Source: a virus (lineage: Duplodnaviria; Caudoviricetes). Taken from it: a stretch of 31,432 nucleotides of DNA. Numbering within the stretch: position 1 is the first letter of the stretch; each line of letters opens with the position of its first letter. The DNA lies in the IMG/VR virus record IMGVR_UViG_3300033755_000092, positions 1-31,432 of that record. One strand, given 5' to 3'. Under the pieces are notes generated by a model, which worked only from the letters and a program-made list of their open reading frames with translations, made no database searches and was not told the DNA's origin. Position numbers and translations under genes: made by a program. Below are positions 1,715-9,202 of this stretch, one piece after another.

Positions 1715-1923
1715 AAATGAAAACCAAGGCGGTTCAGCGCTGGGCGTTCGATAACGACGTGACCTGGGTCATGGTTTCCAGAGAGGCAGGTGTCAGCAAG
1801 TCGCAGGTCAGCCATGTCGTGAATAACAGACGCACGGACACCGGAGACGCTGTTCGGAATGTCCTGTGCTTCTATGGATGCCCGGCCGAGTGCCTGGGCA
1901 CCGATGGTGAGCAGCGCAAATGA
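1711..1923 (+). CDS. Small Ner/Cro-like HTH protein
   Basis: VMVSREAGVSKSQVSHVVNNRR HTH pattern; directly upstream of and ATGA-coupled to the transposase. Confidence 0.75.
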   Translation: MKMKTKAVQRWAFDNDVTWVMVSREAGVSKSQVSHVVNNRRTDTGDAVRNVLCFYGCPAECLGTDGEQRK

Positions 1924-3962
1924 AGGACGCTTTCTCCACCAAGGAGTTGATGGCCGAACTGGGAGTCTCACGTCAGGCGATCGAAAAGCTTGCCGATCGC
2001 CAGGGATGGAAGTGCCGAGTAGAGCCATCCAGCGGCCGCAACGGCACGCTCAAGCTCTGGCGGGTGGAGAGCATGGACGAGAAGACCAAGATCACCCTGG
2101 GCATGCGCCAGCGCACGGCCCTGGCCGTCATTCCCGGCGGCAAAGGCTCCCGGACTGCTCCGCTTCCGGCCAGCCGGGCGCTGGAGCCGGAATTGCTGCT
2201 CCCTGAGCTGCCGCCGGAGAAGCTGCACAAGGCCTCCATGAAGGCCGACCTGGTCTCCCACTACCTGCACGCCAAGGCTTGCGCCAAGCGCAAGGGGCAA
2301 AAGATCGAGGATGCCCGGGCCGGCTTCGTCCTGGCCTACAACGCCGGCATCTCCTACCCGTCCATCCTGGCCGAGCTGGGCGCGACCTCATGGAAGTCCT
2401 TGGAGCGCTGGGCCGTGAACCTCCGGCAGTGCGGCCACGACTGCGCCGCCCTGGCAGAGCGCTACGGCCAGCACCGCAAAGGGCAGAGCAAGGTCACTGA
2501 GGCTGAGAAGGCCATCCTGCTCAAGCTGCTGCTGCACCAGCACAAGATCAAGGTCGGCACGGCCATAGAAATGGCCAAGATGAACCTAGGGCAGCAGGGC
2601 GTTCCGTCCCCCAGTTCGCCCAGCACGCTTCGCGGATTCGTGAATGAATTTCGGGCGCACAATGCGGACATCTGGACCCTGGCCAGGGAAGGCGAGAAGG
2701 CGCTTACGGACAAGATCGCGCCCTATTTCGAGCGCGACATCTCGCTGCTGGAGGTTGGCGACGTGCTCATCGCGGACGGTCACGTCTGCAATTTCACGGT
2801 GGTCAACCCCTTCACGGGCAAGGCAGCGCGCCCCACGCTGATCGCCTTTCTGGATTGGGCCAGCCGGGATGTGGTGGGCTACGCCTACATGCTCACGGAG
2901 GATACCCAGGGCATCCATCTGGCCCTGTACCGGGCGATCCAGCGACTGGGGAAGATGCCCAGGGTGGTCTACCTGGACAACGGCAAGGGGTTCAAGGCCA
3001 AGGTGTTCACCAAGGACCTGGACCTGGAGCAAACCGGCATGGCGGGCCTGTACGGACGCCTGGGCATAATGGCCGTGTTCGCCAAGCCCTACAACGCCCG
3101 CTCAAAAGTGATTGAGCCCTTCTTCAAGACCTTTTCCGACCATTTCGAGCGTTTCGTGCCCAGTTTCTCGGGGGCATCCATCACAGACAAGCCCGCCCGC
3201 TTGCGCCGCAACGAAAAGTTCATGCAAGGCCTGGCTCCGGGAGCACCCATCAGCATCGAACAGGCCTCGAACGCTTTCGAATCCTGGCTCGAACTCTCCT
3301 ACCGCCAGCGCCCACACTCGGGCCTGGGCAAGCGCTCGCCCGGCGAGGTGTTCACGGCCGGTCGCGGAGAAGGAGTGGACCCGGGCCAGCTGCGCTTCCT
3401 GATGATGCACGAGGAAGTGGCCCACCTCACCAACAACGGGGTGCCCCGCTTCGACGGCCACTACTATCACGAAGCCTTGTACGGCCTGCGCACCCGGGTG
3501 CTCATCCGTTACGACTGGCACGATCTGCGGAGCGTCCACGTCTACGACTTGGACGGCAACTACATCTGCGAGGCCAAGCGCACCACGCCAGTGCATCCAA
3601 TGTTCGCGCTGATCGGAGGCAAGGACGCCCCGGGGTATGCGGAATTCCGCGAGCAGAAGAAAGCCCAGGAATCACTCAAGCGGGGGACGAAGAGGGTGGT
3701 GGCTGAGGCCGCGCGCCTGGGCAAGCTGGACGGCATCCGCGACGTCCTGCCCATCCCCGCCGATCCGCGCATGGTTGCAGACATGGAGCGCATCGCGGCC
3801 GAGAACACGCCTCTTCCCAAGCTTCCGGATATCGAAATTTCAGAGGAGTCCAGTCCGGCGAGGCCGGGTCGCTTGATCGACCCGACATCGCTGGACTGGA
3901 TGGACGACAACGACTTGGAGGCAGCGTTCCAGCGCTCCCTCCAGGCAAGCTCAAGGAGGTAG
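1920..3962 (+). CDS. MuA-like DDE transposase
   Basis: N-terminal HTH (FSTKELMAELGVSRQAI), catalytic motifs ADGH / YLDNGKGF / PYNARSKVIEPFF, and a Mu transposase C-terminal region (VLIRYDWHDLRSVHVY). Confidence 0.95.
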   Translation: MKDAFSTKELMAELGVSRQAIEKLADRQGWKCRVEPSSGRNGTLKLWRVESMDEKTKITLGMRQRTALAVIPGGKGSRTAPLPASRALEPELLLPELPPEKLHKASMKADLVSHYLHAKACAKRKGQKIEDARAGFVLAYNAGISYPSILAELGATSWKSLERWAVNLRQCGHDCAALAERYGQHRKGQSKVTEAEKAILLKLLLHQHKIKVGTAIEMAKMNLGQQGVPSPSSPSTLRGFVNEFRAHNADIWTLAREGEKALTDKIAPYFERDISLLEVGDVLIADGHVCNFTVVNPFTGKAARPTLIAFLDWASRDVVGYAYMLTEDTQGIHLALYRAIQRLGKMPRVVYLDNGKGFKAKVFTKDLDLEQTGMAGLYGRLGIMAVFAKPYNARSKVIEPFFKTFSDHFERFVPSFSGASITDKPARLRRNEKFMQGLAPGAPISIEQASNAFESWLELSYRQRPHSGLGKRSPGEVFTAGRGEGVDPGQLRFLMMHEEVAHLTNNGVPRFDGHYYHEALYGLRTRVLIRYDWHDLRSVHVYDLDGNYICEAKRTTPVHPMFALIGGKDAPGYAEFREQKKAQESLKRGTKRVVAEAARLGKLDGIRDVLPIPADPRMVADMERIAAENTPLPKLPDIEISEESSPARPGRLIDPTSLDWMDDNDLEAAFQRSLQASSRR

Positions 3963-3967
3963 GCCCC

Positions 3968-4660
3968 TTGCGCAAGCAGTTCGCCATGACGGCAAACGTA
4001 AAACGCTATGTGACGGCCGTCAACGCCGCCGTGGCCAGCCCGGCCGGTATCGACAAGTTCGTGATCGTGGCCGGCGAGGTTGGCCAGGGGAAAACCGAGA
4101 CAAGTTTATGGTGGAAGAACCACCACAGCCCGCACTCGGTGCTGGTGCGCATCAAGAAGGCCATGGGTCCACGCTGGCTCCTGGAGGACATCGTCTCGGA
4201 GTTGGGGCTCATGCCCGCCAAGAAGAGCCAGGGCCTCTTCGATCAGATCGTGGAGACGCTCATGGGCTCGGACCGGGCGCTGATCCTGGACGAGGTGGAC
4301 TACGTGGCGGACAAGACCACCCTGGTGGAGACCATACGGGACATCGGGGACATGACCGGCATCCCCGTCATCCTGATCTGCATGCCCTGGGCCGATGAGC
4401 GGTTGAAGCGCTACCCCGCGCTCATGCGCAGGGTGAGCCAGCGCGTGGTGTTCAAAGACCTGGAACACGACGACGTGTGTGAGGTGATGGGGCAGATCTG
4501 CGAGGTTCCGGTCGCGGACTGCGCGGTGCAGGCCATCCTGGCGGGCGACAAGAAGATGCCCGTGTACAAGCTCTACCGCTGGGCGCAGGCCTGCGAGCAG
4601 CTGGCCCGCAAGCACAACGTTTCAGAGGTCCGGGCCGAACATTTGGCCCGCAAGGAGTAG
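3968..4660 (+). CDS. MuB-like AAA+ transposition ATPase
   Basis: Walker A GEVGQGKT, Walker B LILDEVD; follows the transposase; AGGAGG upstream of a TTG start. Confidence 0.9.
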   Translation: MRKQFAMTANVKRYVTAVNAAVASPAGIDKFVIVAGEVGQGKTETSLWWKNHHSPHSVLVRIKKAMGPRWLLEDIVSELGLMPAKKSQGLFDQIVETLMGSDRALILDEVDYVADKTTLVETIRDIGDMTGIPVILICMPWADERLKRYPALMRRVSQRVVFKDLEHDDVCEVMGQICEVPVADCAVQAILAGDKKMPVYKLYRWAQACEQLARKHNVSEVRAEHLARKE

Positions 4661-4662
4661 CC

Positions 4663-5220
4663 ATGGGCCAGGTGGGACCCCTGGGCCTGGTGAAGGCCTT
4701 CATCGCCGAGTTGTGCGTCAAGGATGGTGAATTCCGTGAGGCGGACGTCGCCTTTCCGGCGGTCCTCACGCGGGTGACCGGGTTCGAGCGGCGTAAGGTG
4801 CTGCGGGTTATGGACCGGCTCTGCCGTGAGGGCGACCTGCGGCTGGTGGCGGAGGAAAAGGTCCGCACGCCCCGGGGTGAAATGGGGCCGGCCCGTCGCA
4901 ATCCCACCTGGCGCGTCGTACGCGATCCGCGCCTGCGCCGGGACAACCAGGTCCACTCCCGGGTCACGTGCCGGGACAAAGTGTGGAGCACGTTGCGTGG
5001 CCTTCGGCCACGCGCGGTCACCGTGTCGGAAATAAGCCGCTTGAGCGGCTGCGATGACGAAACCGTCCGTGAGGCGATCAAGCTCCTGGAAGAGCACGGT
5101 TACGTGAAGAACAGGGGCAAGATCGAGCGCGAAAAGGCCTGGGTACTGGTGAAGGATGCCGGGCCGAAACGACCGGAGACTCCGGAGGCGCGGCCCGAGA
5201 CCCTGGAGGCACAGTCATGA
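4663..5220 (+). CDS. Hypothetical winged-HTH protein
   Basis: VTVSEISRLSGCDDETVREAIKLLEEHGYV pattern; operonic position after the ATPase. Confidence 0.7.
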   Translation: MGQVGPLGLVKAFIAELCVKDGEFREADVAFPAVLTRVTGFERRKVLRVMDRLCREGDLRLVAEEKVRTPRGEMGPARRNPTWRVVRDPRLRRDNQVHSRVTCRDKVWSTLRGLRPRAVTVSEISRLSGCDDETVREAIKLLEEHGYVKNRGKIEREKAWVLVKDAGPKRPETPEARPETLEAQS

Positions 5221-5579
5221 GCTGGCTCGTGGTCCTCGAAAGGGCCGTCCGGGAAAAGAGTCTCTCCGTGGTGGCCGGCGAGCTGGGCTACCGCTCCAAG
5301 AGCGTGGTCTGCGAGGCGCTCAAGGGAACCTACAAGGGCAATTTGCAGCGTCTGGAGGAGCGGGTTCTGGAAACCTACGGACGTCCAGAAGCGGTCCAAT
5401 GTCCGGTGCTGGGCGAGATCGCGGGCGAGGCGTGCGCCGCCAACCGCGATCTCGCCAAACGCCTGGGCGTTCGCGGCGGAAACGCCCAGACCATCAGTCT
5501 GCGCAAGGGGTGTTTGGGGTGCCTGAAAAAGGATTCGAACGTCCGTTCGAACGGAGGGAAAGGACATGGAAGAGCGTGA
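5217..5579 (+). CDS. Hypothetical HTH protein with Cys-rich C-terminus
   Basis: SLSVVAGELGYRSKSVVCEALKGTYKG ... VQCPVLGEI...C...C..C; ATGA overlap with the previous gene. Confidence 0.75.
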   Translation: MSWLVVLERAVREKSLSVVAGELGYRSKSVVCEALKGTYKGNLQRLEERVLETYGRPEAVQCPVLGEIAGEACAANRDLAKRLGVRGGNAQTISLRKGCLGCLKKDSNVRSNGGKGHGRA

Positions 5580-5922
5580 TCTTTTGAATCTGGCCCGACT
5601 GCTCTGCGTGACCGAGTTGAACCTGATCCGGGCGTCGCGAGCGGAGCCGGAGGATCGGCCGATGTTGGTGACGTCCTGCCACGAGGACGCGCAGCGCGCC
5701 CTGGACTTCTGGGTCAAGGGCCGTGTCACCGGGCTGATGTTCGCCAAGCTCGCCATGGAAGAGGCCTGCTCAAGGCTGGAAAGCGCCCGGAAGTTCGTGG
5801 TCGAGGTGCGCAGGACCGAGCTGATCGGGCTGGCCGTGGCCAAGGTGCTTACGGCCTTGCGGGAAGTGCAAACCGCCCTGGCTGCTCGCCAGGAAAGGGA
5901 GGTGGCCAATGCTGGTTCTTAG
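5566..5922 (+). CDS. Hypothetical protein
   Basis: 118-aa ORF with AGGA RBS, overlapping its neighbours in the operon. Confidence 0.6.
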   Translation: MEERDLLNLARLLCVTELNLIRASRAEPEDRPMLVTSCHEDAQRALDFWVKGRVTGLMFAKLAMEEACSRLESARKFVVEVRRTELIGLAVAKVLTALREVQTALAARQEREVANAGS

Positions 5923-6160
5923 CGTCGAACGGAGCGTGGAGCTTCTCGAGTCGGCCATTGGCGATTTGGCCTTGGCCGTCGGCGGCCAAAACCCGAAGGA
6001 GATCCAATCCCTGGCGCATGCGGCCTGGAAAAAGCTCGGCCAAGCCCGGGCGCTCCTTCGCAGGCCCGATCTGGCTGGGTCTCTTCCGGCCCCGGGGCGT
6101 GCGCCCTTGACCATCCTTCCCGGTGGCTCCGGCTCACGCGAGGAGGTTGCCCATGGCTAG
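5909..6160 (+). CDS. Hypothetical protein
   Basis: 83-aa ORF preceded by GGAGGT; overlaps the Gam start. Confidence 0.6.
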   Translation: MLVLSVERSVELLESAIGDLALAVGGQNPKEIQSLAHAAWKKLGQARALLRRPDLAGSLPAPGRAPLTILPGGSGSREEVAHG

Positions 6161-6692
6161 ACATAAGCCGGCTCCCGCCATGGTCATCACCGACATTGAA
6201 AGCGCGGACAAGGCCCTGGCGGAGCTTGCCGAGATCGAGCGGGAACTCTCCCTGATAGAGATCACGGTGGATGAGGAGGTCGACGCGGCCAAAAAGCGCG
6301 GTGCGGAGCTAGCCAAGCCCCATTTGGAACGCCGCAAGGAACTTGGAACCGCGCTGAGCGTATTCGCCGCCAGTCGTAGGAGCGAACTGTTCGGAAAGGC
6401 CAAGTCGCTCCAGCGCCTGCATGGTGTGTTCGGCTTCCGGCTCTCCAGGAAGCTGGCAACCCTCAAGGGATGGAATTGGAAAAAGGTGCTCTCGGCTGTC
6501 CAGGGCATGGGAACGAGCTTGGAGGATTTGGCAATCTTCGGTGGCTGTGTGCGCACCAAGCCCGAGCTGGACAAGGAAGCAGTGCGCAAGCTCTCCGAGG
6601 CCGACATGGCCCGGATCGGCTGCAAGATCCAGGAGGAAGACGAGTTTTTCATCGAAACCAAGAAGGAGAACGTCGCCGAGAAGGCGGCATAG
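6153..6692 (+). CDS. gam: Gam-like host-nuclease inhibitor
   Basis: ADKALAELAEIER...LFGKAKSLQRLHGVFGFRLS...RTKPELDKEA...QEEDEFFIE; AGGAGG before ATG 6153. Confidence 0.85.
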   Translation: MARHKPAPAMVITDIESADKALAELAEIERELSLIEITVDEEVDAAKKRGAELAKPHLERRKELGTALSVFAASRRSELFGKAKSLQRLHGVFGFRLSRKLATLKGWNWKKVLSAVQGMGTSLEDLAIFGGCVRTKPELDKEAVRKLSEADMARIGCKIQEEDEFFIETKKENVAEKAA

Positions 6693-6702
6693 GGGGCCTG
6701 TG

Positions 6703-6936
6703 ATGGCGAGGGTGAGAACTGAACATACCCTGGAAGCATCCATGGCGCTGGTTAAGGTCTGGAATGAACAATATCCCCCAGGGACGCCCGTCAAGCTGGT
6801 CAAGGATTTTGGGGACATCGTTCTGACCAAAACACGTTCAGAGGCGTGGGTGATCTCTTCCGGGAACGCGATGGTCTACGTGGATGGGATTGCCGGTGGC
6901 TACAAGCTTTCGCGCGTCATCCCCATCAAGCAGTAA
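6703..6936 (+). CDS. Hypothetical phage protein
   Basis: 77 aa (WNEQYPPGTPV...TRSEAWV...VYVDGIAGGY); its stop TAA abuts hammerhead 1. Confidence 0.75.
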   Translation: MARVRTEHTLEASMALVKVWNEQYPPGTPVKLVKDFGDIVLTKTRSEAWVISSGNAMVYVDGIAGGYKLSRVIPIKQ

Positions 6937-6996
6937 GCGAAACCGCCCTTCGGGGCGGTCGTCCGGGCGTGGCGGCCCGGGCCTGATGAGCAGCCA
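6937..6996 (+). ncRNA. Type II hammerhead ribozyme 1 (predicted cleavage after C6960)
   Basis: GC-GAAA-CCGCCC-UUCG-GGGCGG-UC^-GUCCGGGC-GUGGCG-GCCCGGGC-CUGAUGA-GC-A-GCCA. Complete core, stems III and I, 2-bp stem II, and a loop I UGGC / 3' GCCA pseudoknot. Confidence 0.92.
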
Positions 6997-7012
6997 AGGA
7001 GTGATGAGACAC

Positions 7013-7222
7013 ATGGAACTGACCGTACTCACGATAGTGCATAATTCAACGCAGTGTCTTGATCATATTGAGAAACACATTGGTGCTGCATCTACGTTGA
7101 TTGACTTAATTCTTGGCGACAAAACGTGCACGCAGAAGCTCAAGGCGATTGAGGGTCTTAAGATGGAGTTCAACATTATCAAAAGTGATGCGGAAAGGGC
7201 ACTTGCCTTCCTGGGAGACTAA
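7013..7222 (+). CDS. Small AT-rich hypothetical protein between the two ribozymes
   Basis: MELTVLTIVHNSTQCLDHIEKH...AFLGD; AAGGAG at 6996-7001 (alternative ATG at 7004); codon usage visibly more AT-rich than the flanks. Confidence 0.7.
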   Translation: MELTVLTIVHNSTQCLDHIEKHIGAASTLIDLILGDKTCTQKLKAIEGLKMEFNIIKSDAERALAFLGD

Positions 7223-7240
7223 TAGCGCCTCTCGCTTGAA

Positions 7241-7300
7241 GCGAAACCGCCCTTCGGGGCGGTCGCCCGACGGTGGTGCGCCGGGCCTGATGAGCAGCCG
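7241..7300 (+). ncRNA. Type II hammerhead ribozyme 2 (predicted cleavage after C7264)
   Basis: GC-GAAA-CCGCCC-UUCG-GGGCGG-UC^-GCCCGACG-GUGGUG-CGCCGGGC-CUGAUGA-GC-A-GCCG. Same architecture as copy 1, with compensatory changes in stem I. Confidence 0.9.
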
Positions 7301-7312
7301 AAGGAGAATCCC

Positions 7313-7534
7313 ATGGCCTCCATCTACCTGATTTCCGCCGAAGACCAGCCCGGAGCCACGCGCAGGGTGCATCCGGCTGGCGGCTACAAACCTTGCCGGA
7401 AACAAGGACTTCACCGCGCCTTTCAGTCGCCCGACGGCATGGCGGTCTGCCCGGGATGCGATCGCACTTGCGTTCTGCCGGACGGATTCAAGCGCGGAGA
7501 TGCGTTCCTGACCGTGCCGAGGCCCAAGGAGTAG
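7313..7534 (+). CDS. Hypothetical protein with CxxC
   Basis: 73-aa ORF with AAGGAG RBS at 7301-7306 directly after ribozyme 2. Confidence 0.7.
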   Translation: MASIYLISAEDQPGATRRVHPAGGYKPCRKQGLHRAFQSPDGMAVCPGCDRTCVLPDGFKRGDAFLTVPRPKE

Positions 7535-7538
7535 CGCC

Positions 7539-7970
7539 ATGAGCAACGCAAAGTGGAAACCGCTGCCGGGTTTTCCGGTCTACGAGATCAACCGTTCCGG
7601 CTGGGTGCGCAATGCGCGCGGCTATATGCTTGCCAACGGCCAGGGCGCGATGCTTTCCACGAATGGGAAGACCGTGAGCCTTGGCCGCAAACGGCTGCTT
7701 GAGCTGGCCGCTGAGGCGTTTGCTCTGGAAACGCCGCGCGAGATCGTTCCGCTTACGATCCAGGAGCTTCCAGTTCCGGTCAAAGTCGCGGAGCCGAAGC
7801 CGGAAGTCCAGGCAATCACCAAGGAGCATGAGCCTTACGCCCATCCTCACGTGACCAGGGAGCGGCTGCGCCAGTGGATCGATCCTGAACACCAGCTGCC
7901 CCTGCGTGATCCCTGGGCGGACGGCAGCATCGAGGTCGAGTCGACGTGGGCGCTCCAGGGGGTGATGTGA
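7539..7970 (+). CDS. Hypothetical protein with N-terminal NUMOD4-like motif
   Basis: KWKPLPGFPVYEINRSGWVRN resembles NUMOD4; no HNH motif follows. Confidence 0.65.
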   Translation: MSNAKWKPLPGFPVYEINRSGWVRNARGYMLANGQGAMLSTNGKTVSLGRKRLLELAAEAFALETPREIVPLTIQELPVPVKVAEPKPEVQAITKEHEPYAHPHVTRERLRQWIDPEHQLPLRDPWADGSIEVESTWALQGVM

Positions 7971-8146
7971 TGAATCACGCTTACGCTGAACGCCCCCAGG
8001 CTGCGCCCACCGAATGCCCATGTCTCACCTGCCATGAACACGGCTCGTACTGCGCAGAGAGCTGCTCCCGGTTCGAGGCCTGGGAGCGCGCCGGGAAGCC
8101 TGGACGGACCGTCACGACTCAACTGGCCAAGCCGGAAGGAGAATGA
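7970..8146 (+). CDS. Small Cys-rich hypothetical protein
   Basis: TGATG-coupled start; CPCLTC...CAESC. Confidence 0.6.
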   Translation: MNHAYAERPQAAPTECPCLTCHEHGSYCAESCSRFEAWERAGKPGRTVTTQLAKPEGE

Positions 8147-8604
8147 CCATGGGCACCATCATGATCACCCCCGTGCAGATCAAGAAGATCCACGCCTTGA
8201 AAAACGCCATAGGCCTGGACGAGGACGCCTACCGCGACATGCTCGAAGATCGCTTCCGGGTGTCTTCCAGCAAAGGGCTGACCGGCAAGCAGGCCGCCGC
8301 GCTCATCGGCGACTGGGAGAAGAAGGCCGTGGCCTCCGGAGCCTGGAAGGTCCACCCCGGCCGCAAGAAGCACGAGGATCTTCGCACCCGCGCGGATGAC
8401 TTCGCCTCGCCCGCCCAGCTACGCATGGTCGAGGCCATGTGGGACCAGGTGGCCCGAGCGCCCCAGGCCGAGCGCGGCGCAGCCCTGGACAAGCTGGTGC
8501 TGCGCATCGTGAAGCGTGACAAGCTCAGGTTCGTCAAAAAGACCGACGTACCCTCGCTTGTGGCCGCTCTGGAGACCATGGGCGCTGAGAGGGAAAGCCG
8601 ATGA
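8143..8604 (+). CDS. gemA: GemA / DUF1018-like regulatory protein
   Basis: QIKKIHALKNAIGLDEDAYRDML...SSSKGLT...ASPAQLRMVEAMW; canonical position before Mor. Confidence 0.85.
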   Translation: MTMGTIMITPVQIKKIHALKNAIGLDEDAYRDMLEDRFRVSSSKGLTGKQAAALIGDWEKKAVASGAWKVHPGRKKHEDLRTRADDFASPAQLRMVEAMWDQVARAPQAERGAALDKLVLRIVKRDKLRFVKKTDVPSLVAALETMGAERESR

Positions 8605-8900
8605 ACATCCATCCGGAACTGCTGGCCATGGTCCAGCCGGAAGACCTGGCTGGAGATATGGCCCTGGTGGCCCAGGAATGCGGCCTGGAGACGGCCGTGC
8701 GGCTGTGGCTCGGGATGAAGGGAACCTCGGTCAGCGTGCCCAAGAACGCGCTCAACAAGGCGATCGAACGCTTCGTGCGCGAGCGCTACGACGGCCGCAA
8801 CGCCCCCTTGCTGGCCGTAAGTTGCGGGATAAGCGAGCGCCAAGTGTATGTGATCATGGAAAAGGCCCCCATCAAGAACGATCAGCATCGGTTGGTGTGA
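8601..8900 (+). CDS. mor: Mor/C-family transcription activator
   Basis: GLETAVRLWLGMKGTSVSVPK...YDGRNAPLLAVSCGISERQVYVI. Confidence 0.85.
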   Translation: MNIHPELLAMVQPEDLAGDMALVAQECGLETAVRLWLGMKGTSVSVPKNALNKAIERFVRERYDGRNAPLLAVSCGISERQVYVIMEKAPIKNDQHRLV

Positions 8901-8980
8901 GGCGAATATGTGTGACGCAGCCCCCTCCAACGACAACCAGGTCCTCGTCACCGTGGACCTCATGAACCTGGTTTCCAGAG

Positions 8981-9202
8981 CTAAGCAAATCTTTCCCATT
9001 CGCTCAGGTCAGTCGGCCCAGAAACGCTCGGGAAGCAGTCCCAGTCATAATGGCCGGTGGCCTGCATGTACACGGCATCTGCTGCTGCCTGAGGCGAAAG
9101 GAAGTGGCCAAGCCTTTCATCGTCCACACCAAGCCACCAGCCCCCCTGGTTATTGGGCACGATGAAGAAAACGCCTACGCGTGAACGGTAAATGTACGTC
9201 AT
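8981..9202 (-). CDS. Small hypothetical protein in opposite orientation (moron-like)
   Basis: MTYIYRSRVGVFFIVP...SPQAAADAVYMQATGHYDWD...PTDLSEW; AGAGGG upstream. Confidence 0.7.
   Translation of the reverse strand: MTYIYRSRVGVFFIVPNNQGGWWLGVDDERLGHFLSPQAAADAVYMQATGHYDWDCFPSVSGPTDLSEWERFA

Follow-up and report, generated by a model that had tools for sequence, protein, structure and literature searches.

Two type II hammerhead ribozymes around a small gene of a Mu-like phage: probable boundaries of mRNA processing and likely points of gene exchange

The DNA analysed here (the window) is a stretch of 31,432 nucleotides, positions 1 to 31,432 of the virus record IMGVR_UViG_3300033755_000092, for which completeness is estimated at 72%. 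It is a contig of a Mu-like phage, in which a transposase gene (1920-3962) and genes for MuB, Gam, GemA and a Mor-like activator are followed by head and tail genes. The transposase and MuB are 52% and 63% identical, respectively, to those of a Solidesulfovibrio prophage (L160), and three of three genome matches for the small gene described below fall in the Desulfovibrionaceae, so that the host of the phage likely belongs to this family. Two ribozymes sit in the accessory part of the early region, where they enclose an open reading frame (ORF) of 69 amino acids. On the plus strand between 4600 and 9200, no promoter- or terminator-like sites were found, and no gene for RtcB or reverse transcriptase was found in the contig at its 72% completeness. 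The features of the locus are as follows.

6703-6936, plus strand: upstream gene of 77 amino acids (PHROG 19503, unknown function), ending in a TAA stop codon (6934-6936) directly next to stem II of ribozyme 1
6935-6961, plus strand: direct repeat of 27 nt, identical to 7239-7265
6935-6999, plus strand: type II hammerhead ribozyme 1 (RF02276, 79.8 bits, E 2e-15), predicted cut after 6960
6937-6938/6990-6991, plus strand: stem II of ribozyme 1, which also has a stem III hairpin and a stem I at 6961-6982
6983-6989, plus strand: core CUGAUGA of ribozyme 1, with GUC at 6958-6960 and a pseudoknot of 6970-6973 with 6993-6996
6961-7264, plus strand: predicted double-cleavage fragment of 304 nt, deduced from the two cut sites (GUC ends 6960 and 7264)
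6996-7001, plus strand: Shine-Dalgarno-like AAGGAG, sharing its first base with the 3' end of the pseudoknot strand
7013-7222, plus strand: ORF of 69 amino acids (72 from the ATG at 7004), GC 44% and GC3 0.51, with a GC3 of 0.68-0.90 in the neighbouring genes
7239-7303, plus strand: type II hammerhead ribozyme 2 (RF02276, 65.6 bits, E 1e-11), predicted cut after 7264
7274-7277/7297-7300, plus strand: pseudoknot of ribozyme 2 with two G-U pairs; its stem I has a mismatch, A7270-C7281
7313-7534, plus strand: downstream gene of 73 amino acids with its ribosome-binding site (RBS) at 7300-7306; in related phages no ribozyme immediately precedes its homologues

An Rfam search of the window returned exactly two matches, both to Hammerhead_II (RF02276, gathering score 37 bits) and both on the plus strand; the minus strand of the window gave no Rfam match. 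Each match has the CUGAnGA, GAAA and NUH core, closed stems I and III, an open stem II and, by inspection, a pseudoknot of at least four pairs between loop I and the 3' tail. Judged by sequence, both type II hammerhead motifs are real. Ribozyme 2 has an intact catalytic core, and its stem I and pseudoknot differ from those of ribozyme 1 with the pairing kept. Both copies are predicted to cleave themselves by analogy with homologues for which cleavage is described (PMC3088659; PMC8782182), and the stem I mismatch of ribozyme 2, together with the degenerate core of a ribozyme in a related phage (L153), suggests that some copies may be inactive.

This layout has already been described. Multiple hammerheads flank single genes or short blocks in prophages; three clusters were reported to cleave in vitro and one in E. 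coli, and a type II construct cleaved fast only with its pseudoknot intact (Perreault et al., 2011, PMC3088659). As in those clusters, the ribozymes studied here are of type II, with a loop I/3'-tail pseudoknot and a stem II of two base pairs, and a tandem pair of them encloses a small, variable gene of a phage operon. Likewise, several ribozymes lie close together around single genes or short blocks, and the flanked genes are not constant, the same gene being found with zero, one or two ribozymes. The locus is a further case of this known arrangement, in another phage and with another gene. In Desulfovibrio vulgaris, in vivo cleavage has been reported for three type II hammerheads (Olzog et al., 2021, PMC8782182). 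Two of its sites (loc 2 and loc 3) resemble the present pair in Rfam type, in starts that lie 313 nt apart, in phage-like genes and in the likely host family; the reads described in that source are under about 55 nt, too short for an inter-ribozyme fragment, and very few come from loc 2. Furthermore, ribozymes are enriched near Mu-like phage genes for a reason that the authors call unknown (Eckert et al., 2023, PMC10085705), an association that the transposase, MuB, Gam, GemA and Mor genes of this contig match, and the role of bacterial hammerheads has been called open (Weinberg et al., 2019, PMC6765202).

The motif is common in viral records. One strict pattern recovered 135 stretches in 12 of the 64 parts of IMG/VR, which corresponds to about 650 in all, and a two-ribozyme pattern added 16 further loci; given an arrangement both known and this frequent, the present copy is unsurprising. 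Among the 186 distinct motif copies with enough flanking sequence, the stop codon of an open frame lies at most 15 nt upstream in 168 (16% at random positions) and at most 1 nt from the ribozyme in 113, and a loosely defined RBS with a start codon lies within 25 nt downstream in 143 (9.5% at random positions). Whole records were searched for the first 50 distinct contigs; 21 of these records are at least 90% complete, and they comprise 12 with one match, seven with a pair less than 1 kb apart and two with a pair more than 5 kb apart. In 12 single-ribozyme loci, no other Rfam family reached its gathering score. A lone ribozyme is unable to release a circle, and the general role of the motif therefore needs none. 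In addition, 49 adjacent ribozyme pairs enclose unrelated lengths and ORFs.

By sequence similarity, the enclosed 69-residue protein is a member of a small family in Desulfovibrio-type Mu-like phages. Its predicted structure (AlphaFold) is a two-helix hairpin with a pLDDT of 95.7, for which Foldseek found no match at E <= 0.001 in BFVD or PDB. Searches of Pfam and PHROG gave no family and the Atlas no usable match, a further search returned only the protein itself, and nothing was found for the protein in metagenomes or in locus searches with Gam and the 7313 protein. The 11 protein hits include seven small relatives; the other four, long proteins (P0004, P0006, P0007 and P0011), were set aside as matches of the repeat type. 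A relative is encoded at nine loci; after L161 was merged with L153 (100% identical), and L163, where the match lies inside a long ORF with no shared context, was dropped, seven distinct loci were left. A ribozyme lies directly upstream of the relative in four of these (L152, L158, L159 and L162) and further upstream in two (L153 and L154), and one (L160) has none. In none of the seven does the gene stand alone between two ribozymes; in L158 and L159 the gene and one further ORF lie between two, in fragments of 579 and 1022 nt, respectively. The L152 provirus (100% complete, 39 kb) has one ribozyme in all. The conserved link of this gene family is a ribozyme upstream, not bracketing. The homologue in L160 (4968-5186) is partial, covering residues 14-69 with a different N-terminus and without the DHIEKH motif, and no ribozyme is nearby; its gene start may be recombinant.

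Homologues of the downstream gene do not immediately follow a ribozyme in L010, L052, L152, L153, L158, L159 and L162. In the window (7313-7970), this gene precedes the HNH-like gene at 7539, and its homologue comes after that gene in L152, L153, L158 and L162.

Comparison of related phages places exchanges of small genes at the ribozymes. L153 and L158 show 96% identity along 4.6 kb on the upstream side and 97% along 1.8 kb on the downstream side, with gene copies that are 92% identical, and they differ in having one and two ribozymes, respectively, at this slot and different companion ORFs. Their identity stops within the first ribozyme and returns at the next RBS. Both are Desulfovibrio-type prophages, near-identical and with the difference confined to the ribozyme-bounded slot (L153:4510-5210, L158:4880-5540). 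The ribozymes of L153 and L158 have an additional U within or next to the core, and the core of the L153 copy is degenerate in a way that may leave it inactive. In a set of 188 ribozymes, both members have a common upstream flank and different downstream flanks in 16 pairs, and the opposite holds for 31 pairs. These pairs are non-independent, since several clades occur more than once, and in at least two of the 16 an indel seems to have shifted one and the same downstream gene. The two members have the same stem I in 8 of the 16 and 12 of the 31 pairs (background 0.9%), and the same stem III in none of the 16 and three of the 31. Exchanges therefore break ahead of the ribozyme, inside it and behind it, a spread that recombination between conserved DNA blocks would produce but strict ligation of RNA at the cut would not. 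A solely RNA-mediated route, with insertion at the cleavage site, is unsupported, because stem I remains linked to the upstream gene in 8 of the 16 pairs and reverse transcriptase is found in none of five phage records.

Recombination would account for these swaps, and at the DNA level the ribozymes likely have a second role as exchange points for small genes, similar to that of the PeSL cassettes of T4-type phages. Through those cassettes, gene modules are shuffled and DNA mini-circles arise (Arbiol et al., 2010, PMC2839356). In both cases, short intergenic repeats with a role in expression mark the points where small non-essential genes are inserted or replaced, and here, as there, the repeat coincides with swap breakpoints between related phages (L153/L158, and the 16 and 31 non-independent pairs). 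As that source describes them, recombination between neighbouring cassettes can excise small DNA circles, which would be conjectural for the present phage. Unlike PeSL, which combine a promoter with a terminator stem-loop (PMC2839356), the repeat here is a ribozyme, and the plus strand from 4600 to 9200 offered no promoter- or terminator-like site. In the consulted part of Perreault et al. (2011, PMC3088659), recombination is not discussed, and the evidence for swap points is additional to it.

A 5'-OH hairpin would generally protect bacterial messages. The ribozymes of this locus are probably mRNA-processing boundary elements that cut an early transcript into linear pieces and double as recombination sites. 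A long early transcript would be cut at each of the two ribozymes, and each 3' product would begin with a 5'-OH stem I hairpin, paired from its first nucleotide and about 50 nt before the start codon. The following gene would thereby receive a linear message with a hairpin just ahead of its RBS, and the 304-nt piece would also end in stem III. The ends of that piece are hairpin-capped in the predicted fold, by stem I at the 5' end (-16.7 kcal/mol) and stem III at the 3' end (-12.0 kcal/mol). The ribozyme pair around the 69-residue gene would have arisen by DNA recombination at the ribozyme repeat, and not to make a circle. Transcription of the locus, cleavage of both copies and an effect on message stability or translation are presumed in this account, and the benefit of cleavage is hypothetical, since cleavage could equally promote decay. 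Perreault et al. (2011, PMC3088659) likewise proposed processing into gene-length mRNAs, and in synthetic RiboJ insulators ribozyme cleavage decouples the 5' UTR (PMC12857756). Against linear processing stands the recurrence of bracketing, the gene being bracketed together with one further ORF in two of the seven relative loci (L158 and L159) and pairs less than 1 kb apart occurring in 7 of the 21 near-complete records.

Cleavage might instead act as a switch for decay or uncoupling, separating the upstream message for replication and transposition from that of the downstream accessory genes and shortening the life of one piece, with ribosomes at the abutting stop codon or at the RBS modulating the folding. 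The stop codon that touches stem II of ribozyme 1 would suit such a switch, as would the closeness of a stop codon (at most 1 nt) in 113 of 186 copies and the overlap of the RBS with the pseudoknot strand. Many phages also manage with a single ribozyme (12 of 21 near-complete records), and altered stability or translation has been named as an open possibility (PMC6765202). However, in arrays with as many as 24 units, each ribozyme is still followed immediately by an RBS. Furthermore, both new ends are hairpin-capped, which is generally protective rather than destabilising, and a decay switch is on balance unlikely.

The preliminary description had read the 304-nt RNA as a candidate protein-coding circle that rebuilds a chimeric hammerhead around its own ends. 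The composition that it gave for the fragment agrees with the sequence: the 5' part comprises stem I (6961-6982), CUGAUGA (6983-6989), GC (6990-6991) and the pseudoknot tail of ribozyme 1, the 3' part comprises GC (7241-7242), GAAA (7243-7246), stem III and the GUC of ribozyme 2, and the ORF runs inside it from the ATG at 7013 or 7004 to 7222. The chimeric hammerhead can also be drawn by pairing GC 6990-6991 with GC 7241-7242, but it is uninformative: since 6935-6961 and 7239-7265 are 27 identical nucleotides, it has the same sequence as ribozyme 1. The same identity undoes the proposed diagnostic of a circle junction absent from the DNA, as the junction word already occurs at 6953-6968; a junction word is absent from the DNA only if at least 27 nt upstream of the second cut are included. 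In general, the fragment between any two tandem hammerheads of the same type is able to refold into a nicked hammerhead. In unconstrained folding (ViennaRNA), the two-base-pair chimeric stem II has a pairing probability of 0.00 in the linear and in the circular form, and forcing it costs 5.1 kcal/mol (linear) or 6.9 kcal/mol (circular), whereupon an extra helix forms over the RBS. These energies leave out the core and tertiary contacts, so that the low pairing probability is compatible with the chimeric fold.

The proposed geometry and the fragment ends, a 5'-OH and a 2',3'-cyclic phosphate of the kind that RtcB joins, thus fit a circular RNA, but no feature specific to this locus favours one. 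It is very unlikely that host RtcB or the reassembled hammerhead ligates the fragment into a functional, stable, protein-coding circle. RtcB is encoded in both of the two Desulfovibrionaceae genomes that hold related prophages; it circularised about 30-80% of retrozyme monomers in vitro, with 1-3% by self-ligation (PMC7229834), and one natural hammerhead was about one third ligated at equilibrium (PMC2553840). Bracketed fragments do recur, in 49 adjacent pairs, and the helix over the RBS forms once stem II is forced. On the other hand, the 69-residue gene is bracketed alone in none of the seven relative loci, 12 of the 21 near-complete records carry a single ribozyme, and the contig, at 72% completeness, is without RtcB or reverse transcriptase. 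The two halves are joined by two base pairs only, the pseudoknot lies wholly within the 3' product, and a ligated circle would hold an intact copy of ribozyme 1 that could cleave it again. In addition, Perreault et al. (2011, PMC3088659) raised spliced and circular products for other prophage clusters and detected neither ("data not shown"), and in their construct disruption of the pseudoknot or an added pair in stem II lowered activity. Literature showing circles from phage hammerhead pairs was not found in a search in which most subscription papers lay outside the scope.

In retrozymes and viroid-like RNAs, tandem hammerheads release a unit of 170-1000 nt with a 5'-OH and a 2',3'-cyclic phosphate, as would be the case here (Cervera and de la Pena, 2020, PMC7229834; de la Pena, 2020, PMC7761336). 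As those sources describe them, retrozymes carry type I or III hammerheads in non-coding, genomic multi-copy repeats for which circles are shown, whereas the present unit is of type II, single-copy, coding, of one polarity only and inside a phage operon. The window holds two matches and not a multi-copy unit with a non-coding centre, and neither a ribozyme on the opposite strand nor conserved end-to-end pairing was found.

The same description had suggested that 6995-7001 could pair with 7231-7238 and extend the chimeric stem II over the RBS. This helix can be drawn, but it is no stronger than chance: of 2000 dinucleotide shuffles, 36% attain the -10.2 kcal/mol calculated for the two 20-nt segments, as do 24 of 48 tails taken from unrelated ribozymes. 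In its favour, this pair comes fourth among the 49 in tandem, and an equally good match to the tail is offered by only 5 of 48 foreign upstream segments. The helix uses C6995 and A6996, both of them pseudoknot bases (6970-6973 with 6993-6996), and its pairing probability in unconstrained folding is 0.00 in either form. Across the 49 adjacent pairs, of which 20 come from one contig, some are near-duplicates and one skips an undetected copy, pairing of the tail with the upstream segment is not in excess over that of permuted partners (P = 0.89, or 0.61 when the large array is omitted). This result counts against a circle, and the extended helix was rejected as a conserved feature. The invariant GC/GC of stem II (183 of 186 copies) was likewise set aside as evidence for cross-pairing, since the search pattern fixed it.

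Rolling-circle translation was also rejected, as 304 leaves a remainder of 1 on division by three and the ORF has two stops; the fragments of the 49 pairs are spread 17/18/14 over the three frames. In the circular form, a stop-free frame runs from the TTG at 7113 through the junction into the 69-residue ORF (7113-7264 joined to 6961-7222); it has no evident RBS ahead of it and probably arose by chance.

A circular RNA may form at this locus, more probably as a minor by-product than in a functional role, and is not conserved around the relatives of the gene. The wider proposal, a bacterial circular-mRNA cassette in which host RtcB or the reassembled hammerhead closes the 304-nt RNA into a translated circle and the same repeats load new genes, is also highly improbable. 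A translated circle, if true, would have no known precedent among DNA phages as a circular mRNA encoded in the genome and made by ribozymes. The evidence at the locus gives a circle no advantage over linear processing. It is likewise very unlikely that only ribozyme 1 matters and that ribozyme 2 is a neutral, partly decayed by-product of unequal crossover or duplication, as the 27-nt identity, the stem I mismatch and the seven loci in which the 7313-gene homologue is not directly behind a ribozyme might suggest, since an intact core (65.6 bits) and a stem I and pseudoknot that differ from those of ribozyme 1 yet still pair show that it is not a simple recent copy.

With linear processing as the preferred reading, the locus is useful for testing the role of phage hammerheads: related phages (L153 and L158 among them) carry this small gene with none, one or two ribozymes and provide natural controls. 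A much stronger test case than the window locus is the record IMGVR_UViG_3300017605_000570 (G001; L155, L028 and L029), where 24 tandem type II hammerheads lie on the minus strand between 9932 and 17520. Most units of this array contain one small ORF with its own RBS, there is no BLAST similarity among the ORFs, and neither RtcB nor reverse transcriptase was found in the record. In L145 (G005; 2760-3288), three ribozymes with identical stems I and III flank two small AT-rich ORFs, and the identity of these stems suggests recent duplication or conversion.
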